A stretch of DNA of 64,000 nt from Chloroflexota bacterium. GTDB taxonomy: Bacteria > Chloroflexota > UBA11872 > VXOZ01. The stretch covers positions 1,920,001-1,984,000 of the forward strand of contig OZ219802.1 of the NCBI GenBank assembly GCA_964291655.2. Direction: 5' to 3'. This document shows positions 23,199 to 53,596 of the stretch, piece by piece. Position numbers and translations under genes: made by a program. The stretch's first letter is position 1. The number at the start of each line of letters is the position of its first letter. The notes beneath the pieces are model-generated. The model was given only the letters and a program-made list of their open reading frames with translations. It did no database searches and was not told the origin of the DNA.

Positions 23199-23921
23199 AT
23201 GTCGACAAGAAACGATGTCGTCACATTAAAGCTAGATGGAGTAGTGTCATTCCCAGACTTCGCCAGGGCCATTAGCGAACTTAACGAATTGCTGAAGTCC
23301 CTTAGTTCTGAGATTACGGGCAGTGCTGTTTCAGTAGAGTGGAAAGTTATCGAGCTTTCCGCTTCAAGTGCGGCAACTACTTTACAAGGAACTTCCGATG
23401 ACCCAAAGGACGTTCCGTCGCTAATGGCCGCCTACTCCATCGTCGGCCAAGCATTAGAAGATCACTCTGAGATTCCATACTCCGAGGATATCCGCAGACA
23501 TGCTCTTTCAATTGCATCTCTAGTCAATGGCGAGATAACTGCTGTTCACTTCAGCACACCAAGGGCACAGCATATTGTCCGCGAGCCTCCCAAACGGGAA
23601 CAGAAACCAGAAACCGTAGATGCGTTTGGGGCGATAGAAGGACGGATACGGACGCTTTCCGACCGTCAGAACCTCAAATTCACGCTGTATGAGAATCTAT
23701 TTGACGCCCCCGTCATCTGTTACCTTTCTCTTGAAAACGCCGATGAGGCTGCGCGGCTTTGGCGAAAGCAAGTACTTGTCGAGGGGATGATTCGGCGCGA
23801 CCCGAAGACCGGCATTCCGACCCAAATCAGGAGCATCCGAACAATCAATGAGATACCTTCTACTGCTCCTGGCTCTTACCGAGAGGCGCGGGGAGTTTTG
23901 CGAAACGTCGCGAATTCTTAG
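23199..23921 (+). CDS. Hypothetical protein with probable C-terminal OB-fold; partner of the PIN gene
   Basis: Long AT-richer ORF with GAGGTG RBS before ATG 23199. C-terminal IEGRIRTL...VICYL...VLVEGMIRR pattern suggests an OB-like barrel (inference). Confidence 0.75.
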   Translation: MSTRNDVVTLKLDGVVSFPDFARAISELNELLKSLSSEITGSAVSVEWKVIELSASSAATTLQGTSDDPKDVPSLMAAYSIVGQALEDHSEIPYSEDIRRHALSIASLVNGEITAVHFSTPRAQHIVREPPKREQKPETVDAFGAIEGRIRTLSDRQNLKFTLYENLFDAPVICYLSLENADEAARLWRKQVLVEGMIRRDPKTGIPTQIRSIRTINEIPSTAPGSYREARGVLRNVANS

Positions 23922-23929
23922 GGGGCGCA

Positions 23930-24412
23930 ATGCCAGATCTTCCAATCTATATATACTGGGACGCCAACTGTTTCTTGCATTACATCAATGACACGCCAGA
24001 GTACATAAACACGCTACAGGGGATTTTGAGCGAGGTAGAGCAGAGCGAGGGGAAGCGCAAGATTGTCACTTCCATTTTGTCATTAGTAGAGGTGGCACAC
24101 TCGGGCCAAGAACTTATCGACCGAACGCTCGACGAGTCGGCACTTAACAATATTGATAAGCTCTTCTATGACAGCAGCGTGGTGTTGCTTGTAGAGTTTA
24201 CGCCGTTCATCGCGAAACAGGCCCGCGGAATAATGAGAATTGGTTTGGAGGAAAGCCTTAAGCGAGATCCACGCGACTGCATACATCTTGCGACCGCTAA
24301 GTACATGAAAGTGTGTGAGGCCCACACTTATGACAAAGCGCTTTGGGCCTATTCAGACCATCTTGGGATCAAAGTTTGCGAGCCGCGTGTCCAGAATCCA
24401 CGCCTCTTCTAA
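23930..24412 (+). CDS. PIN domain ribonuclease (VapC-like)
   Basis: IYWDANCFL, TSILSLVEV, DCIHLATA, HTYDKAL acidic tetrad. Confidence 0.92.
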   Translation: MPDLPIYIYWDANCFLHYINDTPEYINTLQGILSEVEQSEGKRKIVTSILSLVEVAHSGQELIDRTLDESALNNIDKLFYDSSVVLLVEFTPFIAKQARGIMRIGLEESLKRDPRDCIHLATAKYMKVCEAHTYDKALWAYSDHLGIKVCEPRVQNPRLF

Positions 24413-24433
24413 GTCAGGAATGCGACAACACCC

Positions 24434-25750
24434 CTAACTTGCCGTATCGCGCTTCTGAACCGTCTTTAGTGCCGCCCGGGCGCGGTCGAGAATCTCGCCT
24501 ATGTCCTCATCGCTGTGGGCGAGCGAGAAGTAGAGCTTCTCACCCGGATTCGTAAGGATACCGGAGCGGAGCAGCTCTTGGGCGAATGCGATGCGCTTGG
24601 TATTGTCGGTCTGCAGGCAGTCGCGGTAGCTGCGCAATTCCCCTTCGCCGAAGAAGACCTGCAGCAGCGGCCCTGCGCCGATGGCTTGCAGCGGCTCACC
24701 AAACTCCCTGCCGAGCGCTTCCAGCCCTTCGCGCACTGTATCGCCAATCGCGTGCAGACGCGCAAAGCTGCCTTCTTCCTGCAGCACGCTCAGGGTTGCC
24801 AGGCCGGCCACGGCGCTCAGGGGATTGCCGCTGAACGTGCCGCCCATCCAGACGTAGCGCGGCGTGCCACGGATAGCCGACGAGACCACCTCCATGATTG
24901 CGGCGGGTCCGGCCACCGCGGCCTGCGGATAGCCGCCGCCCAGCGCCTTGCCGAGCACTGCCAGATCCGGCTCCACGCCGTAGTATTCCTGCGCGCCGCC
25001 CCAGGCCAAGCGAAAGCCGGTGACGATTTCGTCGAAGATCAGCAGCGCCCCGACTTCGTGTGCCAGGTCGCGCACGGCGGCCAGGAAGCCCGGCTCCGGA
25101 TTGAGCGCCCGCTGGAGCGGTTCCATGATGATGGCTGCCAGGTCGTCACCGTGTTGGTGCACCAGCTCGCGGGTCAGGTCGAGGTTGTTGAACTCCGAAA
25201 TCAACACCTGCTCTTGCACCTGCGCCGGGATGCCGCTGCTGTCCGGAATGCCGTGGGGATAGTCGCTGGTGCGGGGCGGCGCGGTGCTCAGGGTGGCGTA
25301 ATCATTGCCGCCGTGGAGCGCGCCTTCGAATTTGAGCACCTTGTTGCGGCCGGTATAGGCCCGGGCGATGCGCACCGCGTAGAAGGTGGCCTCCGTGCCG
25401 GTGCTTACGAAGCGGATCTGCTCGGCGCACGGCACGGCAGCGACTACTTGCTCGGCAAGCCGAATTGCCGGTTCGTTCAGGAGAAAGTACGTCGCGCCCT
25501 GCGCGACCTGTGCCTGCACCGCCGCCACCACCGCCGGATGGGCGTGCCCGATGAGCACGGGCCCCGATCCCAGGATGCAGTCGATGTACTCGCGTCCGGT
25601 CATGTCCCACACGTGGCTGCCGCGCCCGTGGGTGACCACAATCTGATATTCGTCCGGCAGCCGCCACAAGCCGGAACTGCCGCCTGGAAAGTGCTGCCGG
25701 CTGGACGCCAAGAGTTCCTGCTGTGTTGCCGCCATTGACAAAGGGTTCAT
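24434..25750 (-). CDS. Class III aminotransferase (glutamate-1-semialdehyde aminomutase-like)
   Basis: STGTEAT, FEGALHG, LIFDEIVTGFR, GKALGGG, GGTFSGNP. Confidence 0.92.
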   Translation of the reverse strand: MNPLSMAATQQELLASSRQHFPGGSSGLWRLPDEYQIVVTHGRGSHVWDMTGREYIDCILGSGPVLIGHAHPAVVAAVQAQVAQGATYFLLNEPAIRLAEQVVAAVPCAEQIRFVSTGTEATFYAVRIARAYTGRNKVLKFEGALHGGNDYATLSTAPPRTSDYPHGIPDSSGIPAQVQEQVLISEFNNLDLTRELVHQHGDDLAAIIMEPLQRALNPEPGFLAAVRDLAHEVGALLIFDEIVTGFRLAWGGAQEYYGVEPDLAVLGKALGGGYPQAAVAGPAAIMEVVSSAIRGTPRYVWMGGTFSGNPLSAVAGLATLSVLQEEGSFARLHAIGDTVREGLEALGREFGEPLQAIGAGPLLQVFFGEGELRSYRDCLQTDNTKRIAFAQELLRSGILTNPGEKLYFSLAHSDEDIGEILDRARAALKTVQKRDTAS

Positions 25751-26170
25751 GTTATTGCTTCCTTACGCGAATTATTGCAGACGCTGAGTGCCTATCACAT
25801 GTGTGGATTCCGGCGCAGGCATCGGCTACTTGCACCGGATTGGTGGGGCTGCACACCAATCGCAACCCTCCGGTCGCAGGCTTGCGCCTGGGCCTTGCGC
25901 AAAGTATCTTACCATGCCGCCAATTGACTCCGGTCTCTGCCCCAAGGAGAGCTATGTCCAAACGCTGGATTTGGGGCGTGGATTGGGTGTATGGCAGAGT
26001 TTCGCCCTCACCCCGGCCCTCTCCCCCCGGGAGAGGGAGAAAGAATCTGTGCCCTTGGATGAGGTTTCGAATTGGTCTGCACAAGCGTCGCTAATGGGTG
26101 TGGTGCGAATGGGTTTCTCGACACGTCTGCGGACCCTGACTCCGCGGACGGCAAGAGGCCCAAGACTATG

Positions 26171-27214
26171 CTACGCAAGCACCTCGTCAGCGTGAGCGAA
26201 GAGCGAGGGAATGCCGCCCGTGTGCACGAAGACGACGCGCTCGCCTGGCTTGAAGGTGCCGTTCCGCACCAGGTCGATGAGGCCGGACATGGCCTTGCCG
26301 GTGTACGTGAGGTCGAGCAGGATGCCTTCGGTGCGCGCCACGGTGTGCACCGCCTCGCGGCCCGCGGCGGTGGTAATGCCGTGTCCGGCGCCGAAGTACT
26401 CTTCGCGTACGTCCACTTCATCAGCAGTTAAAGCGCAGGGGATGCCGTAGTAGTGCGCGGCGGTTTGGGAGAGGGCGGCAATGCGCTCGCGCTGCGGCGG
26501 ATTCTGCGGGCGGATGGAGATGCCAGTGACGTGGTAGGGCAAACCCAACGCCTTCACCGTGGCGGCAATGCCGGTGTGGGTGGAGCCGGAACCGGAGGTG
26601 ACGACAATTGTCGTCGGCTGCTCCGGCAGGTGCTGCAATTGCTCGTGCAGCTCCAGCATGCCGCTCAAGTAGCCCACCACGGACTTGACGGCAAGTTCGG
26701 GATACTTGTTCGTGAAGCGGTAGGGCCGCCTGCCCTGGGCCTTGAGCGATTTCACGCGCTCGTCGATGATGGCCTGCACGCCCACGTCGTCGGCATCGGG
26801 CGCGACCTCCACGTGCGCGCCGAAGAGGTGGTCGAGGAGCAGGTTGCCCTGCACGTCCGCCCGGTGCTTTAGCGCTCCCAGAACGAGGAAACACTCCATC
26901 CCTAGTTTCGCCGCGGCCGCCGCGGTCTGGCGGCACTGGTTCGATTGCGGATACGCGCCGGTAATGATGCAGTCCGCGCCCTGGGCGATGGCTTCACCAA
27001 ACAGAAATTCCAGGTTGCGCGTCTTGTTGCCGCCCAGCGCCAGGCCGGTCAGGTCGTCGCGCTTGATGGAGATGTCGGAACCGCCCAGGTGCGCCGTGAG
27101 GCGTGGGCAATTGTCGAGCGGCGTGGGTACATGCGCCAACTGAGCGCGCGGAAGAGCAGCCAGCATCTCGCGAAAGGTCTCCGTCGTGATCGTCGGCTGT
27201 TCCGGAATAGCCAC
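26171..27214 (-). CDS. D-cysteine desulfhydrase / ACC deaminase family PLP enzyme
   Basis: PTPL, IKRDDLTGLALGGNKTR, QSNQCR, LDLTYTGKAM, HTGG. GTG start chosen by AAGGAGG. Confidence 0.92.
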   Translation of the reverse strand: MAIPEQPTITTETFREMLAALPRAQLAHVPTPLDNCPRLTAHLGGSDISIKRDDLTGLALGGNKTRNLEFLFGEAIAQGADCIITGAYPQSNQCRQTAAAAAKLGMECFLVLGALKHRADVQGNLLLDHLFGAHVEVAPDADDVGVQAIIDERVKSLKAQGRRPYRFTNKYPELAVKSVVGYLSGMLELHEQLQHLPEQPTTIVVTSGSGSTHTGIAATVKALGLPYHVTGISIRPQNPPQRERIAALSQTAAHYYGIPCALTADEVDVREEYFGAGHGITTAAGREAVHTVARTEGILLDLTYTGKAMSGLIDLVRNGTFKPGERVVFVHTGGIPSLFAHADEVLA

Positions 27215-27837
27215 TGAATGCTGCCTCCTTGGGCATTTCGCAACCCTCATTACCGCTTGAGTACTCAACGCACCGCTACTGAGAGTGAGATCCCCGCTCT
27301 CAGTGGTGCCCCGTTTCGGCGTGCGGGGCAGGCATTGTGCCGTTGTAAGGAATACGCCGGCTTCGTCGTAGATGTGGAATTTGGCAGGAGCGGTGAGAGT
27401 CTCCCCTCACCCCAACCCTCTCCCCAGGGAGAGGGAGCAAACCGCGCGCCTTGGGCCCGAGGGGTAGGAGCACTTCGCGTGCCTTTGGCCCGGGGAGTGG
27501 GAGCATACCGTGCGCCAATCAGGCCACTAAATAGGAGTCGCTATGCGCCCTTGGCTCTACCCCGCAAAGCCTGTTCCGTACCTTGATAGGGAGTCTCCCC
27601 AGGGCATGGGGGTCTTCTTGCCTGCCGACCTTTCTTGTGCAAAGCATGCGGGGTATGCAAAACGGGCTCTCCGCTCGGAATTGTCTAGAGTCTGACCCGT
27701 ACTTGAAGCGGAGGGAGGGATATTCCCTGCCAAGACAACCTACACCGGCCCGCTTGACGGAAATTTGCTCCGCTTGCCTCGCGCCGCCAAATTCGAACTT
27801 CAGCTTTCGCGGCACGTAGGGGCGTTAGCGTCGCTGC

Positions 27838-28305
27838 TCACGTAGTAGTGTTCACGGCGACAGCTTGAAGTTCGGCTTCGATCTGCTCCAGCCGTTCCCG
27901 TACGCGCAGGGAACGCTCGTCAAATTGGTCGCGCATTTCAGCCACCTGGCGCATGCGCCCATCCAGCACTTCGACCTGTTGCTCCAGAATTTCCAAACCC
28001 TTCCGCAAGGAATCCCGCTTGGTTTCCAGGTCGGACGCCTGCTTGCTTTCTTGCCGCAGCAGCTTGAGCGACTCCATCGCCTCCACCACCTGTTTGATTT
28101 CGCGCAATGAAAAGCCCAGCAGGCGCTTGAGCTGCACGATATTCTCCAGGCGGTCAATATCCGCAGCCGAATAGAGGCGGAAGCCGCCTTCCATGCGAGA
28201 GGGCGGCGCGAGCAAACCGATTTCTTCGTAATACCGCAGCGTGCGTGGTGTAAGGCTCAGTTGCTCGGCTACCTCGCCGATTTGAAGATAGCGTTCAGCA
28301 GACAT
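27838..28305 (-). CDS. MerR family transcriptional regulator
   Basis: IGEVAEQLSLTPRTLRYYEEIGLL..GGFRLYS..LGFSLREIK. Confidence 0.95.
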   Translation of the reverse strand: MSAERYLQIGEVAEQLSLTPRTLRYYEEIGLLAPPSRMEGGFRLYSAADIDRLENIVQLKRLLGFSLREIKQVVEAMESLKLLRQESKQASDLETKRDSLRKGLEILEQQVEVLDGRMRQVAEMRDQFDERSLRVRERLEQIEAELQAVAVNTTT

Positions 28306-28415
28306 AGCAGTCCCCCAGCAGTTCCCCCGAACATGCGCACCATTCTCTGTTCGCACCGTATACCGTTACAGGCACGCCTTAATCATAGGGGGCAGTTTCC
28401 GTTAAAGTCAACGAC

Positions 28416-29237
28416 TTAGCTGTCCAGTCCTCCCTGGTTGCGGAAAGGCTGCGGCAGGCGTTGCAGCGACCCGTCCAAGAAGCGTGCAACCAAAGGATCG
28501 CTGCCGTGCAAATAGACCGGCCAGACTCTGAAGAAGTTGCCGCCGAGCAGCGCCGCGTCGCCGGCCGCGATCTGGTAGACCAACGCCCGCCGCGGCGTAT
28601 CGCTGTTATTGGGATGGGTGTAGTGCAGCAGATTGCCGTGGTGAATGGTCATGCTCCCGGCAGGTCCTTCCAAGTCGAACAGGTTGCCGTTGGCAACGTC
28701 GGGGGCGTAATCGTCGGCGGTGGAGCAGTGCCCCAGGAACGCGCCGTCCGCGTCGTGGTGACTCACCGGGCCGCGCGTGTGGCTGCCGGGGATGGCCTGC
28801 AACGCGCCGTTCCGCACCGTCGTGTCGTCCAGCAAGAAGGTTACCGCCAGCACGTCGTAATTGGTGAGTGGGTGAAAGGGGTAGTCCTGGTGCCAGTCCA
28901 CGGCGCCCTCACCTTTGGCGATGGGCTTCCAGTGGACCCGCGCCTGAATCAAATGCAGGTTCTCGCCGATGAGCTGCACGGAGGCTCCCACAAGCGCGGG
29001 ATGGTGCGCGGCCTCCATGAAGGCATCCTGCAAGAAGATCACGTCGTGAATAGCAACGGTGCGTTCCTTGCCGCCGCGTCGGAGCCGTTCCTCGTCCAGC
29101 GCGTCGGCGGCTGCCCGCAGCCCGGCGAGCTCCTGCGTCGACAGCACGTTGGGGAGAATCAGAAAACCGTTCTCGTGATAGGACGCGAGCTGCTCGTCGC
29201 TCAGGACCGGTTGGGCAGGGGCCGCCCGATTCGCCAT
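28416..29237 (-). CDS. Phytanoyl-CoA dioxygenase family protein
   Basis: YHENGFL, WHQD, NGALQAIPGSH, HHGNLLH..N..RR. Confidence 0.92.
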   Translation of the reverse strand: MANRAAPAQPVLSDEQLASYHENGFLILPNVLSTQELAGLRAAADALDEERLRRGGKERTVAIHDVIFLQDAFMEAAHHPALVGASVQLIGENLHLIQARVHWKPIAKGEGAVDWHQDYPFHPLTNYDVLAVTFLLDDTTVRNGALQAIPGSHTRGPVSHHDADGAFLGHCSTADDYAPDVANGNLFDLEGPAGSMTIHHGNLLHYTHPNNSDTPRRALVYQIAAGDAALLGGNFFRVWPVYLHGSDPLVARFLDGSLQRLPQPFRNQGGLDS

Positions 29238-29362
29238 AGTGCCGTCCTCCTTCTCGCGTAGTATTGCGGGGGCAAATGCATCTGTCAAGCCGGCTCGCTG
29301 CCGTGCACGGAATCGGCTTTGGTATACTGAGAAAAAGACGCGGCAGTGAAGGATAGCGCCCT

Positions 29363-29659
29363 ATGGCAGAGACGGAGTTGATTACACTGCGGCTCTTCGC
29401 GGTCTTTCGCGAAGCCCTGGGCAGTAGCACGCTGCAACAAGAAGTGCCCGCCGGGACGACGGTTGGCCAGGTGCTGGCCCGGCTCATTGACGAGTACCCG
29501 GCGTTGAGGGGCGCAGAAGCAGCCGTGTCTTTCTCCGTCAACCGCACGTACGCCTCGGCGGAAACGGTACTACACGCCGGTGATGAGGTAGCTTTCATCC
29601 CGCCGGTAAGCGGTGGAGACACTTGCCTGTCTTGGACACTCTCGCTTACCCCGGAATAG
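29363..29659 (+). CDS. moaD: Molybdopterin synthase sulfur carrier with a 13-aa extension after the Gly-Gly motif
   Basis: LRLFAVFREALG...SVN...GDEVAFIPPVSGG followed by DTCLSWTLSLTPE. Confidence 0.88.
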   Translation: MAETELITLRLFAVFREALGSSTLQQEVPAGTTVGQVLARLIDEYPALRGAEAAVSFSVNRTYASAETVLHAGDEVAFIPPVSGGDTCLSWTLSLTPE

Positions 29660-29720
29660 AAGCAAGAAGACTCCCTCTCCCTAAGAAGACCACTGCATTG
29701 ACCTTGGCGAGGCGGGAAAG

Positions 29721-29850
29721 TTCCCTCTCCCGGCAGAGACCTTTGCATTACCCTTGCCGGGTCGGATAGGTCCCCTCTCCCGGAGAGACCCTTGCGTTAC
29801 CCTTGCAGGGTCGGATAAGTCCCCTCTCCCGGCGGAGACCTTTGCGCAAC
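29721..29850. repeat. Three units of about 49 bp: CCCTCTCCCGG-GAGACCTTTGC...
   Basis: Direct repeats of a palindrome arm joined to an IS5/IS1182-like terminal motif. Confidence 0.75.
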
Positions 29851-30024
29851 TCAAGCGGTAGCGATATAGTTCCCTCTCCCTCGACGGGAGAGGGCTAGGG
29901 TGAGGGTGGATCTCCTGAAGTCTCTCCATATGCACACCAAATCTGCCCTGCTACGGCTTGACACTGCCCAGCGTAAAGGGCCATCGTAGCAACAAGACCC
30001 CCCTCACCCTGGCGCACTCCCCAG

Positions 30025-30214
30025 GAGGCCGTCTCATAAACGCATCGCTCCGTGTAGACTTGCCCTTCGACCCTTCGACAGGCTCAGGGCGAACGTAACA
30101 GGCAACAATCCGTTCGTGCTGAGGGCTTCGCGCAGCAGGCTACGCGAAGCCTGCTGCGCGAAGCCCTTGTCGAAGCACGATTTAGCTTATCAAATCGACT
30201 TATGAGACAGCCTC
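30025..30214. mobile_element. MITE family C (GAGGCCGTCTCATAA / TTATGAGACAGCCTC TIRs, IS5/IS1182-like)
   Basis: 15-bp TIRs with CCAG duplication in the loop of a CCCTCACC palindrome; second copy at 45589-45789. Confidence 0.85.
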
Positions 30215-30463
30215 CCAGGGAAAGGGAGTAGCTCTTGCGCCTCCGGCCGGGGTTACGCAGAGGTCCCCGGCGGGAGAGGGCTAGAGCCTGCCCCCTACTC
30301 GATACAGCGTATCGACACGATACGGGGGTGAAGGGGGATTATCTGCAGCCCAGGCACGTATCTCTTCTCAAGGCTCTTTTCACTGCATTGGCGCACTTCA
30401 GTACAGGTCTTGCGGGTAGAATGGACAGGACTAGCAGAAATCCCCTCACCCCGGCCCTCTCCC

Positions 30464-30751
30464 TGTACAGACCGGGGACATAGGTAACAGTTGTTCGGGG
30501 ACATGGGTTACACATTTTACTGATTGACACCTACGAGAGCATTGGGTTGGTCCGGGTTTGATAAGAGACTGGCGACACAGTGCACTCACTTTCAGCCTGT
30601 CAGCTTGTGCCAGAGAAACAAACTGTGTGCATAAGGATATTGAGCGGATCTAACTTTCAAGGCAAGGACATCGCATACTACGAAAATCCCCTCGTTCTAT
30701 GGTGTAACCTATGTGCCCGAACATGTGTAACCCATGTACCCGGTCTATACA
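30464..30751 (+). mobile_element. MITE family A, 288 bp, between moaD and moaE
   Basis: Reads identical to 20748-21035; 5-bp duplication CTCCC. Confidence 0.93.
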
Positions 30752-30931
30752 CTCCCCAAGGAGAGGGAGAATTTCTCGCGCCGTTGGCCAACCTTAAGCC
30801 GTTGGCCAACGTTTCAATGAAGTCGCCTGGGGAGTAGGATTGGGTAAGAGGTGAATCCTTGTCGATGCTGCCTGTCCCGCCAGCTTGACGGAATTGCGCA
30901 CAGGCCACATATTTTTGGGAGAAGCTAACTA

Positions 30932-31408
30932 ATGTCCATAGCCAAGACTACGGCAGAGAAAGTCGAGACCGGTCACTTTCGCATCCTCGAGCGCCCGATC
31001 ACGGCTGACGAACTTATCCCCCATGTGCTCACCGACGCCTACGGCGCCGTGGCGACGTTCTCCGGCACGGTGCGCAACCACGCCCGCGGCAAGCACGTCA
31101 CCGGCCTGACCTACGAGGCCTACCCGGAGATGGCTGAGGCGGAAATGCGCAAGATCGCGGTGGAGGTCTATGCGCAGTGGCCGGAATGCAAAGTGGCTAT
31201 GCTGCATCGCATCGGCAGGCTGGAGATCGGTGACGTCTCGGTGGCGATCGCGGTGGCCACACCTCACCGCAAGGAGTCGTTCGAGGCCTGTGAATTCGCC
31301 ATCAACCGGCTCAAGGAGACCGTACCCATCTGGAAGAAAGAGGCCTACGCCGACGGTGAGGTGTGGGTGGAAGGCGTCTCCCCCGGCGCAGACGGCAACG
31401 CGGGCTAA
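30932..31408 (+). CDS. moaE: Molybdopterin synthase catalytic subunit
   Basis: GAVATFSGTVRN, YEAYPEMA, HRIGRL, PHRKESFEAC, PIWKKE. Confidence 0.96.
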   Translation: MSIAKTTAEKVETGHFRILERPITADELIPHVLTDAYGAVATFSGTVRNHARGKHVTGLTYEAYPEMAEAEMRKIAVEVYAQWPECKVAMLHRIGRLEIGDVSVAIAVATPHRKESFEACEFAINRLKETVPIWKKEAYADGEVWVEGVSPGADGNAG

Positions 31409-31493
31409 GTCCCACGCGCCTTAGGCCAGTGCGTTGGGGAATTGGACTATTAGCTCCTAGGCGAGCACACCCACGCTACGCTTTTGCCGCACG

Positions 31494-32429: not shown

Positions 32430-32755
32430 GGCTGCCTCACTTTCTCAAGTTTTTGGGTTCTATCGTTTGCCAATGCTCTTGCAGCTTCTACCTTCCCCGG
32501 GGAGGACTTTGCAAAAACCCTCGTCGGAACGCAAGAGCGACCCACTCTCCTAAAGGCTTTCCCCTGCTCCTAAGACTTTCTCCTTCTCCCTGGGAGGCCT
32601 TTGCGTACCTAGAACCTGAGGGAAATGTATTACTCCCTCTCCTCGGTGAGAGGGCCGGGGTGAGGGGAAACTTCGCCAATTCTTCCCAGTCCCGCCAGTT
32701 TGGTCGGGCTTATCCGCAGTCCCCAGCCACGTGAAATCCGTGGCGCAACGGTCGC

Positions 32756-34763: not shown

Positions 34764-34770
34764 CGGCAGC

Positions 34771-43702: not shown

Positions 43703-43954
43703 CTAGAGAGGTATGATCTCGAAAACTCTCCCTAAGATCAGGAGGTTGAGGGCGAATAGGAGACCAAGTACCCACCTGTGAATGCGGAACTCACCGCGCA
43801 TTTCATTAGCAAGCGCGTTCACGATGCCTTCGAGCGCACTCACTTTGGCTTCAAGCGCGACAATTTCATTCTTTGTGCTCGCTAAATCTGCCTTTGTCGC
43901 TAGGTGATCGTAAACGCCTTCTAGGCGAGATAGCCGCTCCTCAGTCGTTGCCAT
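43703..43954 (-). CDS. Small coiled-coil membrane-anchored protein (LATKADL / DUF1640-like)
   Basis: ERLSRLEG..HLATKADL heptads, C-terminal TM helix, GGAGAGG RBS. Confidence 0.7.
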   Translation of the reverse strand: MATTEERLSRLEGVYDHLATKADLASTKNEIVALEAKVSALEGIVNALANEMRGEFRIHRWVLGLLFALNLLILGRVFEIIPL

Positions 43955-44081
43955 TGCCCTCCTCCTTCTCCCTAGACTATAGCACGAATGAAACAATTAT
44001 GGCAGGATGAAGTATTCGCGCTACAGCGCATCGTCAGGGACTTCCTCATGAAGGTGGGTCGGGGGCGCAATGGTGCTGTTG

Positions 44082-45284: not shown

Positions 45285-45588
45285 GTTTCTCCTTGGGACC
45301 AGTGGGTGGGTGACGTTCACCCTTGAAGCTACCTGTATGATGCCGCCGCCCGGCGGAGCGGTCAATATACGTCCTCGCCTCCATCTCAAGAATTGGAATT
45401 GCGGACTAATCTCCTTCAATCTACCCGGTTTTCACCGGTCTGGTACAGGTACGCGTAATTGCTCCCAGGGAGGGCGACAGAAGAAGCAAAGCACTGCCTC
45501 AGCCCTGTGTAGCAATACCAACTCATGTGTAAAGTATGTCCCCGCACACCTGTAAACTATGTGTCAGGTCTATACACCCTCTCCCCAG

Positions 45589-45789
45589 GAGGCCGTCTCA
45601 TAAATGCATCGCTCAGTGTAGACCTGCCCTTCGACCCTTCGACAGGCTCAGGACAGGCAGGCTCAGAGCCTGCCCCGTACTTGATACGGGGGCGAACGTA
45701 AAAGGCAACAATCCGTTCGTGCTGAGGGCTGCGCGAAGCCCTTGTCGAAGCACGATATGGCTTATCGAGCCGACTTATGAGACAGCCTC
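45589..45789. mobile_element. MITE family C copy, preceded by an isolated family-A-like right end (about 45525-45576)
   Basis: GAGGCCGTCTCATAA...TTATGAGACAGCCTC with CCAG duplication; upstream TGTAAACTATGTGTCAGGTCTATACA. Confidence 0.82.
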
Positions 45790-45792
45790 CCA

Positions 45793-45947
45793 GGGAGAGG
45801 GAGTAATCGGCGGGCTGCTGGTCGACATTCCACAGCGGACAATTGGGAGAGAGGGCGTAATTGGGGCGCTGCTGGTCGAAGTTACGAATTGGACTCTCTG
45901 GGGAGAGAGAGTAAGTGCTGCGCTGCTGGTCGAGATAGTGCAGAGGT
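45793..45947. repeat. Three degenerate units of about 53-54 bp (GGAGAG..GTAA...GCTGCTGGTCGA)
   Basis: GCTGCTGGTCGA recurs three times at regular spacing. Confidence 0.7.
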
Positions 45948-46236
45948 GACCTTGAGGACTCCCTGCACGTCACGTAGGGCGCGCGTCACGAGAGGTTGTT
46001 TGCAGGCTGCATGCCGCCGGCTGAAGGAAAAGCACGTTTGGAGTAGCGTGACGAATCACAGAGCACCCCTCCTGACCGATCAGTCTAGATGAAGGACCAG
46101 GCATAATCGCAGAGTGCCTTCTTTGGGATTCTCGGCAGGCCGGTCAGCCTCGCTCTTGCGGGATGCGGGCGCAGTCCGCGAACTCTGCGACGGACCGTTG
46201 GTTTTCGCAAGCTGCGAGGACATTCGAGAGAAACAA

Positions 46237-46274
46237 TAAGGAGGAGGGTGACGGTTTCGTCATCCTCCTCCTTA
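46237..46274 (-). terminator. Intrinsic terminator downstream of the DksA/TraR-like gene
   Basis: TAAGGAGGAGGGTGACG / CGTCATCCTCCTCCTTA stem, followed on the minus strand by TTGTTTCT. Confidence 0.7.
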
Positions 46275-46312
46275 CGGAGTGAGAGGGTAAGAGACAGCAG
46301 GTAAAATTCTGC

Positions 46313-46699
46313 TTAGCGTGCCCCGAACCAAGCGCGCTCGCGCCGGGTCTGGCACGCGACGCACAACGTAGCTTCCGGCACAAACTCCAGGCGTTCCGCA
46401 GATATGCCCTCTCCGCAGTCTTCGCAGACGCCGTAGGTGCCGGCCTCGGCTTTCTGCCAGGCCTGATCGAAGGCCCTCAGGTCGCGCCGCAGCACATCAA
46501 GCACTGCTTCGCGATCCTCTTGGATGGCGACTTCCTGCGCCAAGTCCACAAAGTCATCATCGTCTGCCGAAGCATCACTGCCACGTTCACGTTCCCGCAA
46601 GTCGGTTGCGATTGAGTTTGCAAGGAGCGCTGCCAGGGCGTCCCTCGCCTCTTGCAACCGCTGCACGCGGTCTACTCTATGCTCTAGCTCTCTGGCCAT
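46313..46699 (-). CDS. TraR/DksA C4-type zinc finger protein
   Basis: DxxDxA (DFVDLA), GTYGVCEDCGEGISAERL..P.ATLCVAC. Confidence 0.92.
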   Translation of the reverse strand: MARELEHRVDRVQRLQEARDALAALLANSIATDLRERERGSDASADDDDFVDLAQEVAIQEDREAVLDVLRRDLRAFDQAWQKAEAGTYGVCEDCGEGISAERLEFVPEATLCVACQTRRERAWFGAR

Positions 46700-47198
46700 G
46701 GTGTACCTCCTTCACTGCACTCCGGCGGCCTTGTGGGCGGCGCCGGTGCCGTGCCACGATGTGGGCTAGGTGGGACGCGGTGTAACTCCTTTGTTACGTT
46801 TTTGCGGCCCACCGGGTCGCAACGAGCTATTTCTGCCAGCATACCACCGGATTTCAAGACTGTGAAGCGATTCTAAGGAACTTCTTAGGATATTCGCCAA
46901 TTATTAAGGATATTCTAAGAATCAAGCTTCTATTCTAATAACTATAGTCTTTATAGTAACGGATGTGGGGCATGGATTTGAAAGATTCTCTTAGGTTGCC
47001 ACTAAAAGGGTTGCAGTCCTGATGAAGAAGGATTAAGAAAAGTGACGTTTGGCAGGAGACTAATCTCACCCACTCTGATCTTACATTCCCCGGCAGGAAC
47101 ACCAATCTGCGCTCGCAGGGCACTATCAGCAATGCCGTTTGGCGGCGCAGAACGCAACATGGCACAATGACGTATACATACCGAGGAGATCACATTCA

Positions 47199-48239
47199 AT
47201 GAGGACGCATCGGATTGCCGTTGCCGGTCTGGGTTCTTTTACGCAACGCGTCCTGCTGCCCGGCCTCTTGAGTTGCGACCGCGTACACGTGGTTGGCGCC
47301 TTCACGCGGAGTCGGGAGCGCGCCGCAGAAATGCAGTCGCAGCACTCGAGTTTGCCGATACACACAGACTTCTCGCGGATGTTGGTTGTTGCCGAGCCGG
47401 ACATCGTATTGGTCGGCACCCCAAATGCCGCACACGCGCCCATGACCATCGAGGCCGCCCAACGGGGCTGTCATGTCATCTGCGAGAAACCCCTTGCGCC
47501 AACACTGCAGGGAGCCGAGGCGATGGCGGCGGCTGTGGGCAAGGCCGGCGTGCGCACGGCGGTAAACTTTACCTTTCGTTCAATCGGCGCCGCGCGCTAC
47601 GCCAAGCACCTGTTGGACGAAGGTCGCGTGGGGCGGATTTCTCATGTTACCGTACTGTACCTGCAAGACATTCGGCATGGCGCGAACCGCCCCAAAGTAT
47701 GGCGCATGGATGGTGAAGTAGCCGGGGCCGGCGCGCTCGGCGACGTGGGCAGCCACGCTATCGATCTGGTGCGGTGGTGGTGCGGTGAGTTTGCTAGTGT
47801 AACAGGTCACGCCTTCACACACAACGTGGAGCGCGACGGCGGCGCGGTTAGCAACGACGATACCGCAGTCTCCCTCGCGCGGCTGGAATCGGGTGTGCCG
47901 GTCACGCTGCACATCAGTCAGGCGGCGGCCGGTCGCTCGAACTCGCTGCGCGTGGAAGTGTACGGCGAGGAAGGAAGCTTGATCTTCACGGCAGAACGCG
48001 GCACGGATCCCACGGTGCGGGTGGCTGAACCGGGTGAAATTGGCTTTACGCAGTTGCCGGTTCCTATGGAATTCACCGTTGCGTATGAGGACTTTCCCGC
48101 CTATCACGCCGCGCGGCTGGTGGGCACCGTCCTCGGTACGGACTTTGTGGCAGACTTTGCCGACGGTCTGGCGGCACAGCGCGTCATCGACGCGGTACAG
48201 CGAGCGGCCGCAGACAGCTCCTGGATTTCACTGACCTGA
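47199..48239 (+). CDS. Gfo/Idh/MocA oxidoreductase
   Basis: GLGSF, TPNAAH, CEKPLA, GALGDVGSHAID. Confidence 0.93.
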   Translation: MRTHRIAVAGLGSFTQRVLLPGLLSCDRVHVVGAFTRSRERAAEMQSQHSSLPIHTDFSRMLVVAEPDIVLVGTPNAAHAPMTIEAAQRGCHVICEKPLAPTLQGAEAMAAAVGKAGVRTAVNFTFRSIGAARYAKHLLDEGRVGRISHVTVLYLQDIRHGANRPKVWRMDGEVAGAGALGDVGSHAIDLVRWWCGEFASVTGHAFTHNVERDGGAVSNDDTAVSLARLESGVPVTLHISQAAAGRSNSLRVEVYGEEGSLIFTAERGTDPTVRVAEPGEIGFTQLPVPMEFTVAYEDFPAYHAARLVGTVLGTDFVADFADGLAAQRVIDAVQRAAADSSWISLT

Positions 48240-48262
48240 GCGGTGGGGTCGGTCTACGACCA

Positions 48263-49462
48263 CTAGGTGCGAGAAGCCTCAGGATCGGCCGGAGGGGCGC
48301 TCTCCGCAGGCGATGGTGCGACTTGTGGCTGCCCATCGTCTTGCTGCGCCGCTTGCTCGGCAGCCGCTGGCTCCGGCTCAGGGTCGTCACTCATTTGGGC
48401 GATGAGCCACGGCACCAGCAGGCGCATTATAAGTACCTGCATTGCAGCCATCAGCGGCACTGCTATCACGATCCCGACTATTCCGTAGAGCACGCCTCCC
48501 GCCAGCACGCCTACCATTACGAGGATGGGATGCAGTCCGACGGCACGTTCCATCACTTTGGGAACGAGGATGTTGTTCTCTAACTGTTGCACGATCACGT
48601 ATAGGATTGCCGTGGCCAGCGCCAGCCAGGGGGAGATTATGAGCGCCACGAGTACTGCCGGAATGGCCCCCAGAAACGGTCCGATGATGGGGATGATCTC
48701 CATGAGGCTGGCCCATGTCGCCAGGGCAAGCGGATACGGCACTCCGAGCACAAAGAGGCCGACAAACGTCACGGTGCCGATGAATACCATGAGAATGACC
48801 TGGCCGCGCACCCACCCGCCGGCGCGTTGGGAGAGTTCGGCGGCCAGGCTGCGGACCGCCGTCGCGCGCCTTGGCGGCAAGAGCGCGATCACGGAGCGAT
48901 TGAGCCGTTCCGTGGCGCTCATCCAGAAGAAGCCAATCACGAGCACAGACACCACACCGAACAAGAACCCTAAGACCTGAAATGGTACAACAGCCAAGGT
49001 ACCGATGAGCTGAGTGATTGTGCTGGTGAGATCCGAGCCAAGTTCCCGCACTTCGTCGTCGAAACCAAAGTCTACCGATATCTGGTAGAGCCTTGGGACT
49101 TCGTCCCGCGCCCAGTCGGCAAGCTCCAATGTTATGTCGTCTACTTCACGTACCTGCACCACAAGTGGAGGGACGAGAATCAGGCCCAGTCCTGTTAGTA
49201 CTAACGCCAACAGGAAATAGACGATCATAACAGCGGCGCCGCGGGGGATCTTCCAGGTCCGCAGCTTGTTGGCGATTGGCCGAATTGATTCCGCCAGGAG
49301 AATACCGAGGAACAGCAGCACCAGCACGCTGACGATGCGCGTGGCAATGATGGCGATGAAAACCACAAGTAAAACCACGCCGGCGCCGAGCACAAAGCTC
49401 ATAGGCGTGATGCGGATATCGCGTGATTCGGGAAGGTTGTCCATAGCAGTGAAATACAGCAT
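48263..49462 (-). CDS. AI-2E family transporter
   Basis: Multi-TM; IPIIGP, VQQLENNILVPKVM..VGLHP, AVPL. Confidence 0.93.
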   Translation of the reverse strand: MLYFTAMDNLPESRDIRITPMSFVLGAGVVLLVVFIAIIATRIVSVLVLLFLGILLAESIRPIANKLRTWKIPRGAAVMIVYFLLALVLTGLGLILVPPLVVQVREVDDITLELADWARDEVPRLYQISVDFGFDDEVRELGSDLTSTITQLIGTLAVVPFQVLGFLFGVVSVLVIGFFWMSATERLNRSVIALLPPRRATAVRSLAAELSQRAGGWVRGQVILMVFIGTVTFVGLFVLGVPYPLALATWASLMEIIPIIGPFLGAIPAVLVALIISPWLALATAILYVIVQQLENNILVPKVMERAVGLHPILVMVGVLAGGVLYGIVGIVIAVPLMAAMQVLIMRLLVPWLIAQMSDDPEPEPAAAEQAAQQDDGQPQVAPSPAESAPPADPEASRT

Positions 49463-50008
49463 AGCACGCCGCCAACGCTGTTAGCAAAGTGACCCATCCC
49501 TGCCTATGGGCCGCTGCGACTAGAACTGCTGGCGTCGGTTGCGATGCTCGCCGTCGGCTACGCGGAGCATAGCGGCCGGTCCTTGGGGACGGTGGGCCCC
49601 TGAACGGACCTCATGACAGTCTGAATCTAGAGGAAGGCTACTCGCACAAACCTGTACGACTTGGCGCCAATGGTTCGGAAACCGGTAAGGTGGCAGGAAG
49701 AGTACATATGTGCTGCTATTGAAGTATTATATTACTGTTATCCTTATTGTGTAGTGTTGATATGAGTAGCCCCAAACCGTGTGAACGAGACTTTCAGCAT
49801 GAAACGCGAGCGGGCCGGCGGGAACGGCTTTTCCCAAGCGTGGAAACTCTCGGGCTACCGCGCCGGTAGCACGGTATGGCTGAACATCCAGTCGCTATAG
49901 ATTGCGCCGCGGCTCTCGCCGTGTATACGGGGCAAGCGCTTTGCATTTCGCTCTCGATGCAAGGCAAAGTCAACATACCAGACGCGCCCGATACCGGAGG
50001 TTGAAACG

Positions 50009-50626
50009 GTGATCGACGGCGAGCAACAGCCAATTCCGGGACAAGGCGCTGGTGATTCCGGCGGTTCGCTCCAATGGCTGGAACGCAACCGCTTGAGCAT
50101 TGTGCTCTTGCTGGTCGTGCTCACTGCTGTTGCGCTGGGACTGTACGCCTTGCAGTTGCGCAATACCGCGCCGATTACGGTGACGCCGGTGCAGACGGAG
50201 TTGCGCGATGTCAAGGTGTACATCACAGGCGCCGTGGCACAGCCGGGTGTCTACGCCGCTACGTCCGGCGAACGGGTTGGGGACGTGGTGGCGCGCGCCG
50301 GGGGTTTTACGACGGAAGCCGATCCCGTAGCGATCAATCTGGCGCGGCGCATACGGGACGAGTTGCACGTTCACGTTCCCGCTAAGGGAGATACGTCGCA
50401 ATTAAGCGTGGACGGCGCGGAACCGTCCACGCTCAGGCCGATCAACATCAATACGGCAACGCAAAGGGAACTTGAAGCGCTGCCCGGCATCGGCGAGGTA
50501 ACCGCGCGCCGCATTCTCGCCGCCCGCGATGCCGACGGCCCGTTTGCCAGCGTGGACGATCTGCGCCGCGCGGGCGTACGCGAATCCGTCATCGAGCAGA
50601 TTCGCAGCCTGGTCGTTGCCGAGTAA
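50009..50626 (+). CDS. comEA: Competence DNA receptor ComEA (SLBB + HhH)
   Basis: TM anchor, VYITGAVAQPGVY, INLA, ININTAT..LEALPGIGEVTA. Confidence 0.9.
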   Translation: MIDGEQQPIPGQGAGDSGGSLQWLERNRLSIVLLLVVLTAVALGLYALQLRNTAPITVTPVQTELRDVKVYITGAVAQPGVYAATSGERVGDVVARAGGFTTEADPVAINLARRIRDELHVHVPAKGDTSQLSVDGAEPSTLRPININTATQRELEALPGIGEVTARRILAARDADGPFASVDDLRRAGVRESVIEQIRSLVVAE

Positions 50627-51134
50627 GCCGGTGTGAGGGCATGGGTGTTGCCCTCGGGTACGAGACTGTTCATTGGCGCTGCGAGGGAACGAATTCGACC
50701 GCAGAACCCACTTGGTGGGCACAGGTTCCAATCTTGTGCTACCCTCTCCAATCAAGGAGACTCTGGTAGATCGCTGGCAAGTAGGCAAGTAAAACGCTGG
50801 CCAGCAAGAGGGATGACCGCCGTCCATTACGAGTCAGTCGCTAAACCACAACCAGAATCCTACGATAACTCCCTCTCCCTCGGGAGACCTTTGCGTTACT
50901 AGGTCCAGAGGGAACTGTTTTGCCCCCTCTTCCTGGGGAAAGGGTTGGGGTGAGGGGAACATTACCCATGGGGCCAACCCTATCGCATTGCACGAACAAA
51001 GTCGCGCCATAGGACCCTGTTGAGGCAGTATGCCCCGTAGGGAGGCGTACTAGGTGGGGAATGTCGGAATCGAAATGTCTTGGCTCCACGAGTAAACGCC
51101 GGATAAGTTCAGTGAAGAAACGAGTGTATGAGTC

Positions 51135-52313
51135 ATGGATGAAATTCGCGTCGGACTGGTCGGATTGGGGCATCGCGGGCTGCACTGGCTGCGCATGCTC
51201 GAGCGCATCGAGGGCTACCGCATCACAGCGCTGTGCGATCCGATTGTGACTCTGCACGAGCGGGCGCTGGATGCCCTGGAATCGCGCGAGGGCGTGAAAG
51301 CCTACGCTAGCTACGAGGACATGCTGGGCGATCCCCAGGTGGACGCGGTGGCGGTGACGGTGCGCTGCAAAGAGCAGGGCGCGCTGGCGGCCATGGCGCT
51401 GGAGGCCGGCAAGCACGTGAATACCGAAGTACCGGCGGCGCATACCCTGGAGGACTGCTGGCGTATCGTGCTGGCGCAGGAGCGGTCGGGGCTGGTTTAC
51501 CAGCTTGGCGAGCAGACGCGCTTCTGGGGCTACATCGACGCATGGCGCAACGTGGTGCGGTCAGGTAAGTTGGGACAGATCACGTTCTGCGAAGGACAAT
51601 ACATCGGTTACTACGGCACGCGGCAGTTTTTTCAGGATCCGGCTTCCGGTGAATTCGCGTCGGTGGATGAGCTATATGAGAAACCGGGGGCGCAGCCGAC
51701 GTGGCTGCACACCATGCCGCCGATTCACTACCTGCCCCACGAGCTGAGCCCGCTGTTGAAGGTGCTGAACGACCGGGTGGTGAACGTGACCGCCATGAGC
51801 ACCGGCACGCCCAGCTACTCGCACCCCGAAATCGGCCAGCCTGATATTCAGGTTGCGCTGATGAAGACGGAGAAGGACGCCATCCTGCGGCTGGTCTGCG
51901 GCTTCACCCAGCCGGCCTCCCACGGCATGGGCCACCACTGGTTTCACATCAGCGGTACCGGCGGCGTGCTGGAGTGGAAGCGCAGCGGCAGCGGCAAGCC
52001 GCTCATGTGGCTGGCCGACGGGCAGATGCACGACCTGGCGCAGATGGACTGGGGCCACGCCCGCACCGACGCCCCGGCCGCCGCTCGCGGCAGCGGTCAC
52101 GGAGACGCCGACTACTACGTCCACGTCTCGTTCCGCGACGCCGTGCTCGGCACAACCCCCCTGGAATTCGACGTCTACCAAGCCATGGATACCGCCGCCC
52201 CCGCCATCCTCGCCGCAGACTCGATAGACCAAGGAACGGAACTGCTAGAAGTCCCCAACTTCCGCCCAGGACCGGAGCGGAGGAAAGGTGAACCGCCGTC
52301 AGTCTGCAATTAA
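51135..52313 (+). CDS. Gfo/Idh/MocA oxidoreductase
   Basis: GLVGLGHRG, GKHVNTEVPA, GHGDAD. Confidence 0.9.
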   Translation: MDEIRVGLVGLGHRGLHWLRMLERIEGYRITALCDPIVTLHERALDALESREGVKAYASYEDMLGDPQVDAVAVTVRCKEQGALAAMALEAGKHVNTEVPAAHTLEDCWRIVLAQERSGLVYQLGEQTRFWGYIDAWRNVVRSGKLGQITFCEGQYIGYYGTRQFFQDPASGEFASVDELYEKPGAQPTWLHTMPPIHYLPHELSPLLKVLNDRVVNVTAMSTGTPSYSHPEIGQPDIQVALMKTEKDAILRLVCGFTQPASHGMGHHWFHISGTGGVLEWKRSGSGKPLMWLADGQMHDLAQMDWGHARTDAPAAARGSGHGDADYYVHVSFRDAVLGTTPLEFDVYQAMDTAAPAILAADSIDQGTELLEVPNFRPGPERRKGEPPSVCN

Positions 52314-52441
52314 GCAACTTGAGGGCGGGCTGACCGGAGGCGGATTAGTTCTGGACCCATAAGCTGATTGCCGGAAAGACTGCTCCAGCCCTTAATAGAG
52401 TTCTCGCAAGGACTGCAAAACAACTCTATTCTTGGTTGGCA

Positions 52442-53596
52442 CTATTCTTCAGAGCCATTGACGTCTTGGGTGTCATCTTCATCGAGGATTACGTCTGCAA
52501 TTCTAGGGTTTAGCAAGCGCCATCGCTGTCCAAGCCTCTCCAAGTCTCCCCTCATTACAACTGGAGCCTTGGCCCCATGTGCTCGCACAGCTCGCTCATA
52601 GTCGGACTGATCCAGAACTGCCACCACTGAGCGGTTGTGCCCGTCAATGGACGCACGAATAGAGACACTCCCTTCGACTTCCTCTTCTTCACGCTTGAGG
52701 GATCGTACAATTCCAAATAGTTGCGTATCCGGTTGCGGTTCACGGTCACGAAACGACCGAGCGGCCTCACGTAGGATTGGTACATCGTCTGCGTCGAAGT
52801 TGACATTCTCGCGCGTAGTAGTCATTGGGCGAGTTCTTGCCCAAACTACGCTTGTATCTAAACTGGGAAACGGTTCAATGAGCTTAACTAGTGCTTCGCA
52901 CAAGTTGGCGCTTACGCCGCGACCAATTGCTCTAGAGAACGCTTCAGCATCTCCTGAGGCAGTTTTTTCAGTAGCCTCGCGAGCAGCCCTCAGGGCACCT
53001 GCGAGGCGCTTTGTCACTCTACGTTCAATCGGATCATCGTCGGGTTCCATTTCCGGCAGTAGGTCTTGTTGAATTCTTGGTGAAACAACGGGAGCAAGTA
53101 ACGTCAGAGCGTAACTACCGTGCTCTGTCTGTCCCAAGCGTACCCGATCCAAATAGTCGCTTGCTTCTCTGTTTGCTCCCGCCCGATACAGTGCTCTTGA
53201 CTCATTCAACGAACATGCCGCAGCTAGGATCATCTCTTGGGCGCCACTCAAGAGATTTAGCCCATCGTTCACTGGAACGTCACCACTACCTTCGCCTTCG
53301 AAAACTCTAACACGAATAACATCGCGATCAGCTGTGACCAGATCGCGATACAATGTATGCTCATCTATTTCTGCGGCCTTAGCGAACACTTGAATCAACC
53401 TCGATACGACTGTGGCGTAGTCGCCAAGTCGCTGTGTCCTCGGCAGTATAATCTCGGGTAGCTCTTCACCTGCGTAAATGTCTGAGTAATCGCCGTAATC
53501 GCCTTCCTTGTCCCAACCTGCAGAGCGCGCATAGGCCGAAAGGGCTGCAGGGGAAACAGCAGCCAACGCTTCGCTATCCTGAATGGTAGCTCTCAT
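52442..53596 (-). CDS. Hypothetical protein coupled to the DUF4365 gene; probable C-terminal OB-fold
   Basis: 384-aa ORF whose start overlaps the DUF4365 stop (ATGA). N-terminal YARSAGW..IILP segment is HicA-like; C-terminal FGIVRSL...VVMRGDL is OB-like (both inference). Confidence 0.8.
   Translation of the reverse strand: MRATIQDSEALAAVSPAALSAYARSAGWDKEGDYGDYSDIYAGEELPEIILPRTQRLGDYATVVSRLIQVFAKAAEIDEHTLYRDLVTADRDVIRVRVFEGEGSGDVPVNDGLNLLSGAQEMILAAACSLNESRALYRAGANREASDYLDRVRLGQTEHGSYALTLLAPVVSPRIQQDLLPEMEPDDDPIERRVTKRLAGALRAAREATEKTASGDAEAFSRAIGRGVSANLCEALVKLIEPFPSLDTSVVWARTRPMTTTRENVNFDADDVPILREAARSFRDREPQPDTQLFGIVRSLKREEEEVEGSVSIRASIDGHNRSVVAVLDQSDYERAVRAHGAKAPVVMRGDLERLGQRWRLLNPRIADVILDEDDTQDVNGSEE

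Follow-up and report, generated by a model that had tools for sequence, protein, structure and literature searches.

In VapBC toxin-antitoxin modules, the toxin-binding C-terminus of VapB antitoxins occupies VapC. PD-T4-10 is a toxin-antitoxin-like abortive infection system against T-even phages, in which the small A protein neutralises a toxic B protein (PMC9519451). The same paper names DUF6575 among the domains newly linked to defence. In SPARDA, a short prokaryotic Argonaute system, DUF4365 is fused to APAZ and degrades DNA non-specifically after target recognition (PMC10810196; PMC12205087). PDC is a set of 145 untested candidates whose genes were found inside BREX, DISARM, and type I restriction-modification loci (Payne et al., bioRxiv 10.1101/2024.01.29.577857). 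Here, two nuclease gene pairs of a Chloroflexota bacterium are compared with these systems. Both are located in a stretch of 64,000 nucleotides (nt), the window (contig OZ219802.1 of assembly GCA_964291655.2, positions 1,920,001 to 1,984,000).

In pair 1, a partner protein of 240 amino acids (aa) is encoded next to a PIN-domain nuclease. In pair 2, a partner of 384 aa is encoded next to a DUF4365 nuclease. The initial annotation of the window had noticed by eye a weak resemblance of the two partners and proposed one sensor scaffold with swappable effectors. Based mainly on the predicted structures, we consider it reasonably probable that these are two independent nuclease modules whose partners belong, as distant relatives, to a single structural superfamily. 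Pair 2 corresponds to an existing catalogue entry, and pair 1 is uncatalogued.

Two Gene Pairs in the Window

The features of the two pairs are as follows. Residues of the pair 1 partner are numbered throughout by its 252-aa open reading frame (ORF).

23199..23921, forward strand: pair 1 partner (P0001), 240 aa, no library match; an in-frame upstream ATG at 23163 gives the 252-aa ORF (23163-23921)
23217-23582, forward strand: alpha/beta domain of P0001, residues 19-140
23616-23852, forward strand: OB fold of P0001, residues 152-230
About 23853-23918, forward strand: Arg-rich tail of P0001 with the conserved motif GSYRxARG
23930..24412, forward strand: pair 1 nuclease, 160-aa PIN-domain protein, VapC-like (PF01850, E 4.2e-8)
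52442..53596, reverse strand: pair 2 partner (P0003), 384 aa, PADLOC PDC-M02B
53330-53578, reverse strand: N-terminal alpha-beta-beta-beta-alpha domain of P0003, residues 7-89
52742-53326, reverse strand: alpha/beta middle domain of P0003, residues 91-285
52490-52735, reverse strand: OB fold of P0003, residues 288-369
53593..54093, reverse strand: pair 2 nuclease (P0004), 166-aa DUF4365 protein, PADLOC PDC-M02A (PF14280, E 2.6e-24, residues 14-158)

All the strings quoted in the initial annotation are present in the translations, and both partner genes exist as it described them. The most likely start of P0001 is M13 (23199), because 17 of 18 homologues in its alignment (A1) begin at that Met. 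Each partner is tightly coupled to a different nuclease, as had been claimed: 8 nt separate the stop codon of the pair 1 partner from the PIN gene, and the stop codon of the DUF4365 gene overlaps the start of the 384-aa gene by 4 nt.

The G+C content of the window is about 60%, with dips to 0.53–0.57 at 20–24 kb and 52–56 kb. Pair 1 sits in the first dip and pair 2 in the second. The 28 kb between the pairs is occupied by housekeeping genes, namely those for an aminotransferase, a PALP enzyme, oxidoreductases, and an AI-2E transporter. Therefore, the pairs are two separate islets and not a single locus.

Predicted Structures of the Partners

The AlphaFold2 models of both partners are confident, with a mean predicted local distance difference test score (pLDDT) of 81.4 for P0001 and 81.1 for P0003. 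The N-terminal part of P0001 is composed of a strand (19–26), a helix (30–52), two strands (58–66 and 71–78), two helices (83–99 and 108–118), and two strands (125–131 and 136–140). It is followed by an OB barrel with strands at 152–165, 172–177, and 183–187, a helix at 190–198, and strands at 203–212 and 219–230, and then by a short tail helix. In P0003, residues 7–89 form the extra alpha-beta-beta-beta-alpha domain, which is absent from the P0001 model. The middle domain contains a strand (91–99), two helices (109–128 and 143–151), a short bridge (152–153), a strand (162–170), three helices (190–240), two strands (245–251 and 262–268), and a helix (269–285). The OB barrel of P0003 has strands at 288–301, 309–317, and 320–328, a helix at 330–341, and strands at 345–355 and 358–369.

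The order of elements is shared: beta-alpha-beta-beta-alpha-alpha-beta-beta and then beta-beta-beta-alpha-beta-beta, to which P0003 91–369 adds inserted helices. Both predicted barrels have five strands, the third and fourth of which are joined by a helix, the arrangement that defines an OB fold. The alpha/beta plus C-terminal OB architecture put forward in the initial annotation is thus present in both models, in the same order. The predicted OB fold of P0001 resembles binders of single-stranded DNA or RNA.

Foldseek searches of both models against PDB gave OB-fold matches only, with E of at least 1e-3. In a sequence search of PDB, the profile of A1 gave no matches, and the best match of the profile of A2, the alignment for the pair 2 partner, was a de novo helical bundle (E 0.004). 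When the P0001 model is compared with BFVD, the three best matches are Q6NE06 of Leptospira phage LE1 (381 aa, E 1.6e-8, probability 1.00, 301 columns), a 370-aa viral DUF6575 protein (E 2.4e-8, 256 columns), and a 270-aa Myoviridae protein (E 2.3e-7, template modelling (TM) scores 0.41/0.39). From rank 4 onwards the matches are generic OB proteins with E of at least 1.1e-3. The top three are five orders of magnitude better, over alignments of 256–301 columns, which argues against a chance combination of two common folds.

Phage LE1 connects this search to pair 2. In a tblastn search, a PDC-M02B homologue on an Entomospira plasmid led to an LE1 gene, LE1-0037 (E 8e-12, 91% coverage), which alone among the LE1 coding sequences (CDS) listed has a length of 381 aa. 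It matches PDC-M02B models (PDLC04333, E 1e-64; PDLC04298, E 9e-38), its upstream neighbour is PDC-M02A/DUF4365, and it is similar to P0003 (BLASTP E 4e-12, 337 columns). Q6NE06 being the top match and presumably this M02B member, the P0001 model fits an M02B protein far better than plain OB proteins. At the level of predicted structure, the similarity of the partners exceeds chance. It is likely that the two modelled partners share a fold, and common ancestry is probable to a lesser degree.

Points against Common Ancestry and the Possibility of Convergence

Several results weigh against a common origin of the partners. A TM-score above 0.5 had been named in the initial annotation as support; the whole-chain scores for Q6NE06 are 0.37/0.26, with a root-mean-square deviation of 18.9 and aligned ranges not given. 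These scores were measured on the LE1 relative in place of the window's own 384-aa model, and Q6NE06 is equated with LE1-0037 by its unique length, not by accession mapping. TM-scores below 0.5 would be expected if the hinge between the two domains differed and the target had additional parts.

The sequences themselves give little. BLASTP of P0001 versus P0003 returned only E 8.9, and scores of profile hidden Markov models against sequences were never above 6 bits. With hhalign, the whole profiles of A1 (19 sequences) and A2 (48 sequences) were matched at 0.13% probability. The value was 0.30% with a diverse 83-sequence alignment of the pair 1 family (A3), and 2.0% (P 0.025) when the M02B alignment was diversified by 11 plasmid homologues. 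That last alignment pairs OB with OB (P0001 158–235 versus P0003 293–374, 75 columns). The hhalign probability ranges from 0.13 to 6.3% overall, so that the profile-profile comparison proposed in the initial annotation found no significant match, at most about 6%.

Comparison of single domains gave P 0.0059 for OB versus OB, and 0.00052 with query and target exchanged. The N domain of P0001 and the middle domain of P0003 are aligned with P 0.01 (25–77 versus 104–169, 52 columns). Four non-corresponding domain pairs gave P 0.047–0.45 over 12–20 columns. As controls, the OB domains of SSB, AspRS, LysRS/AsnRS, and DnaE from related genomes reached P 0.003–0.008 against either C-terminal domain. 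Because the OB domains of SSB, AspRS, or DnaE score equally, the OB half of the likeness is generic. For the N domains, reversed or unrelated profiles reach P 0.02–0.05, where the proposed pair has 0.01; with its own reverse, the M02B middle domain gives 0.009.

All of these weak alignments are in the same order and join the same structural elements. The conserved residues facing each other (P0001/P0003) are G26/G105 and S68-S69/G160-S161, where the consensus of the P0001 family is G-S, and, in the OB part, G160/G295, G208/G350, and R212/R354. The sequence signal is consistent in order and structural position, yet not significant. Accordingly, the alignment first made by eye is reproduced in its pairings and order by hhalign with diverse alignments, but its sequence signal is no better than chance in the controls. 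The claim of remote homology has the fold match to a presumed M02B member (E 1.6e-8) on its side, but no significant sequence or profile match.

These controls, the missing profile match, and the TM-scores below 0.5 are what would be expected if two common folds had been combined by chance, without shared ancestry or function. The viral matches to the P0001 model, the coincidence of conserved Gly, Ser, and Arg residues, and the independent finding of DUF6575 by a language-model search (0.76–0.77, a lead only) are not, and we regard such convergence as rather unlikely.

The PIN-Linked Family of Pair 1

P0001 has no match in Pfam, NCBIfam, PADLOC (5027 models, E ≤ 1, PDC-M02B models included), or PHROGs, and no Pfam OB family is matched at E ≤ 1. 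A word-indexed search found 18 relatives, and exhaustive searching with a profile yielded 1996 representative clusters at E ≤ 1e-3, 471 of them at 1e-30. Nearly all relatives are about 250 aa long among the 150 matches listed. According to automatic labels, the nearest Atlas clusters belong mostly to Cyanobacteriota and Acidobacteriota. The family is matched in 42 of the 401 Chloroflexota genomes drawn. No match was obtained by tblastn of P0001 versus phages or of the homologue P0143 versus plasmids.

The linkage to PIN was surveyed in Chloroflexota genomes and in four metagenome loci found with P0143. In 36 of 40 loci, the partner gene is followed directly by a PIN gene. The first set contributes 13 of 14 loci: 12 by Pfam at E ≤ 0.01, two of these below Pfam's cut-off, and one (L012) by a six-frame search with a purpose-made PIN profile; L007 has none. 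The second set contributes 23 of 26 loci (22 from Chloroflexota and the four from metagenomes), 20 by Pfam and three (L086, L106, and L111) by six-frame search. Its exceptions are L105 with a PIN fragment only, L110 with none, and L113, where only the C-terminal domain of the partner is present near a PIN fragment. Eight loci of the same genus (L089–L092 and L094–L097) were redundant and had been excluded before counting. Genomes may be shared between the two sets, and related genomes are not independent; without L086 and L088, which come from genomes flagged unpublished, the count is 34 of 38. Neither DUF4365 nor M02B was found in 13 loci of this family searched in six frames.

In the PIN protein, D11, E54, and D116 are invariant and D135 is nearly so among 10 orthologues. 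In the tail of P0001, G237, R240, R243, and G244 are invariant, and the isoelectric point of the tail is 10.7. Complex prediction for the 240-aa partner (A3) with the PIN protein (A5) gave uncontrolled scores of 0.32, 0.26, and 0.25, the mark being 0.32, and has no bearing either way on binding.

These features could belong to an ordinary chromosomal VapBC-type module with an outsized antitoxin, whose OB fold binds its own operator for autoregulation, without phage sensing; the fold shared with PDC-M02B would then be ancestral baggage. The order of antitoxin and then toxin with the 8-nt spacer, the intact acidic set of PIN, and the conserved basic tail that follows the OB fold all suit this explanation. 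The pair is syntenic across the genus, adjoining the same aminotransferase, its neighbours are HicB and small islet genes rather than defence genes, and it has no PADLOC match. However, P0001 contains no AbrB, RHH, Phd, or HTH domain, its predicted OB fold resembles binders of single-stranded DNA or RNA rather than of operators, and its structural relatives belong to a validated defence system and a defence candidate. An ordinary VapBC module is unlikely, though it deserves serious consideration. Pair 1 is an uncatalogued module of a VapC-like toxin and a partner without the antitoxin domains by which VapBC is recognised.

Some loci of this family are irregular. In two distant loci, both counted above among the 12, the PIN gene is split over two frames (L008, 4746–5238; L009, 4680–5269); the gene may have undergone a frameshift or become a pseudogene, or the assembly may be wrong there. 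Some Dehalococcoidia-type genomes (L116, G188:C6:2147000-2155000; L117, G136:C1:542000-557000; L118, G253:C1:155000-166000) contain clustered short ORFs of 113–147 aa that match only the OB-plus-tail part of the family (profile positions 133–250). Up to three of them occur within a few kb, and nearby PIN fragments are only about 47 aa long. These ORFs may have decayed from complete copies, or may form an OB-plus-tail family of their own. P0206 (352 aa), the lone long member of the pair 1 family, was considered as a fusion and rejected, as its N-terminal extension is of low complexity and probably reflects a wrong start.

Pair 2 as a PDC-M02 System

P0003, which has no match in Pfam, matches 38 PADLOC models, of which all those listed are named PDC-M02B (best PDLC04298, E 1.2e-126, positions 1–377 of 380). 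P0004 matches 25 models named PDC-M02A (best PDLC04278, E 4.6e-59, positions 3–165 of 167), and also phrog_27905 (E 1e-25). With an M02A match and an M02B match in adjacent genes on one strand, pair 2 is a PDC-M02 pair. The class that had been thought possibly undescribed is thus already catalogued in the case of pair 2, with both proteins matching over their full length. The name PDC-M02 comes from PADLOC-DB and was not found in the literature searched, which most subscription journals lie outside.

The M02B family includes 1749 proteins at E ≤ 1e-3 among 8000 candidates scored. It is seen on plasmids of several phyla (15 records), and M02B or M02A in phages: phrog_27927, phrog_27905, two Mycobacterium prophage records, and Leptospira phage LE1. 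Against phages, tblastn of P0003 found only the two Mycobacterium prophage records, and LE1 surfaced with the Entomospira homologue.

Eleven of the 15 plasmid records were examined (H6, H12, and H14 were left out as duplicates, and H10 was also left out). A DUF4365 gene is directly upstream of the M02B homologue at 10 of these 11 loci, as it is in phage LE1. One of the ten is cut by the record end, and none was detected at L018. No PIN gene was found in the 11 loci. The Q-L-K motif (Q58-L59-K60) is invariant in seven aligned DUF4365 partners.

The DUF6575 Branch

In the language-model search, DUF6575 is the nearest Pfam-named cluster (scores 0.76 and 0.77, leads only). One of the 401 Chloroflexota genomes encodes a DUF6575 protein (396 aa, locus L119). 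Its N-terminal part matches PADLOC PD-T4-10_B (residues 3–130, E 1.6e-13) and its C-terminal part matches PDC-M63B (residues 170–394, E 3e-14). The upstream neighbour (137 aa) matches PD-T4-10_A (E 1.4e-7).

The DUF6575 alignment (A6) was compared with 13 query profiles. The N domain of P0001 (19–51 versus 143–182, P 0.01) and the M02B middle domain (91–257 versus 141–288, 144 columns, P 0.018) gave the two lowest values; the other 11, OB controls and reversed profiles included, gave P of at least 0.15. Conserved G-S and W positions are aligned in this comparison. P0001–P0005 have no match to the PD-T4-10_A and PD-T4-10_B models or to PF20215, and tblastn of P0291, a DUF6575 protein, versus phages gave no match. 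In the literature searched, only Vassallo et al. mention DUF6575.

Another DUF6575 homologue, P0409 (546 aa), contains a PLD-type nuclease domain (PF13091) in addition to DUF6575, according to precomputed annotation. At L119, an IS1595-type transposase gene (2534–3370, forward strand, PF12762, E 7e-28) adjoins the PD-T4-10-like pair, which is consistent with mobility of that pair.

A Possible Mechanism and Exchange of Effectors

The superfamily, which we favour as stated above, would have a core of two domains, a ferredoxin-like alpha/beta domain and, after it, an OB fold of the nucleic-acid type. An N-terminal alpha-beta-beta-beta-alpha domain and helices would have been added to this core in the pair 2 partner, and the Arg-rich C-terminal tail in the pair 1 partner. 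The same core may be present in DUF6575 proteins, related to PD-T4-10B and PDC-M63B. Each small nuclease would be translationally coupled to the larger non-catalytic partner, which might bind its own nuclease and hold it silent. In pair 1, the Arg-rich tail possibly silences PIN, as VapB tails occupy VapC. The OB domain would be the ligand-sensing part, binding nucleic acid or a phage product, and the binding event would free or activate the nuclease, resulting in growth arrest or abortive infection. We put forward this role of the partner as sensor or regulator tentatively, with somewhat less than even confidence.

Gene order is opposite in the two pairs, with the partner first in pair 1 and the nuclease first in pair 2. 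Furthermore, PD-T4-10 B, whose model matches the DUF6575 part of the L119 protein, is the toxic member. These two facts call for caution in regarding the scaffold as an invariable inhibitor.

The partner could instead be an activator or a part of the toxic effector, the nuclease being inert until it is recruited or assembled on nucleic acid. The toxicity of PD-T4-10B and its neutralisation by the small A protein (PMC9519451) fit this, as do the nuclease-first order of pair 2 and the DUF4365 of SPARDA, which requires target-induced assembly for its activity (PMC12205087). The toxic part of PD-T4-10B may, on the other hand, be the N-terminal DUF6575, which is absent from both window proteins. 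In addition, PIN proteins of the VapC type that stand alone, without a partner, are as a rule toxic. On both sides taken together, an activating partner appears quite improbable.

The effectors are fixed within each family: PIN at 36 of 40 loci of the pair 1 family, and DUF4365 at 10 of 11 plasmid loci plus LE1 in the M02B family. The swappable effectors of the initial annotation therefore fit only at a deep level, between families. There, they do differ: PIN, DUF4365, an N-terminal DUF6575 domain accompanied by a small A protein, and, in a single protein, a fused PLD domain. It can be speculated that a widespread alpha/beta plus OB adaptor superfamily is the chassis of a modular toxin-antitoxin-like abortive infection class with PIN, DUF4365, DUF6575, and PLD effectors, and that its PIN-linked branch (about 2000 clusters at 50% identity) is an anti-phage system missing from the catalogues. 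We consider this possible but doubtful.

If such a chassis is real, it connects the validated but mechanistically opaque PD-T4-10 with the untested PDC-M02 entry and with the large PIN-linked family that is uncatalogued. A single study, structural and biochemical, of the OB ligand and of the hold and release of the nuclease could then explain several systems, and structure, not sequence, would be the handle in searching for further effector partners. It would also mean that comparison of predicted structures has revealed a relationship that profile-profile comparison misses.

Neighbouring Genes

The genes flanking the two pairs are rplT, a HicB gene, and tyrS. Pair 1 is preceded at about 1.2 kb by the HicB-family antitoxin gene (21625–21960, reverse strand, PF05534, E 5.6e-16), whose own neighbours are rplT and a 209-aa ORF that encodes an Excalibur calcium-binding domain. 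In several loci of the same genus, a reverse-strand ORF of 111 aa is found again about as far upstream of the pair 1 module.

A 275-aa ORF (54187–55014, reverse strand) immediately precedes the PDC-M02 pair and belongs to the same islet of low G+C content. It has no match in Pfam, NCBIfam, PADLOC, or PHROGs. By eye, its C-terminal part (...RDFRNYIHP...) resembles an Rx6H motif of the HEPN type. This ORF could be a third defence-related gene.

Comparison with Known Systems

Pair 2 is a member of PDC-M02, from which it differs in nothing, while pair 1 matches no PADLOC model. No description of a shared scaffold or of a link between these families was found in the literature searched, and a search there for VapC with an atypical OB-fold antitoxin turned up only an unrelated review.

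Pair 1 is similar to VapBC in its PIN toxin with conserved acidic residues, its tightly coupled upstream partner gene, and its basic C-terminal tail. It differs in the partner, which at 240 aa is composed of alpha/beta and OB domains and contains no small AbrB, RHH, Phd/YefM, or HTH antitoxin domain.

The likeness to PD-T4-10 and DUF6575 is seen in predicted structure, the viral DUF6575 protein being the second-best match of the P0001 model. In contrast, the window proteins contain no DUF6575, their neighbours are nucleases and not a PD-T4-10A-like protein, and it is the large protein of PD-T4-10 that is the toxin.

SPARDA and pair 2 have in common DUF4365 (DREN), of the PD-(D/E)xK type, beside a separate nucleic-acid-sensing protein, a role that in pair 2 would fall to P0003. 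Unlike SPARDA, pair 2 contains no APAZ fusion or Argonaute; P0004 is the DUF4365 domain alone, and its neighbour is the PDC-M02B protein with the OB fold.

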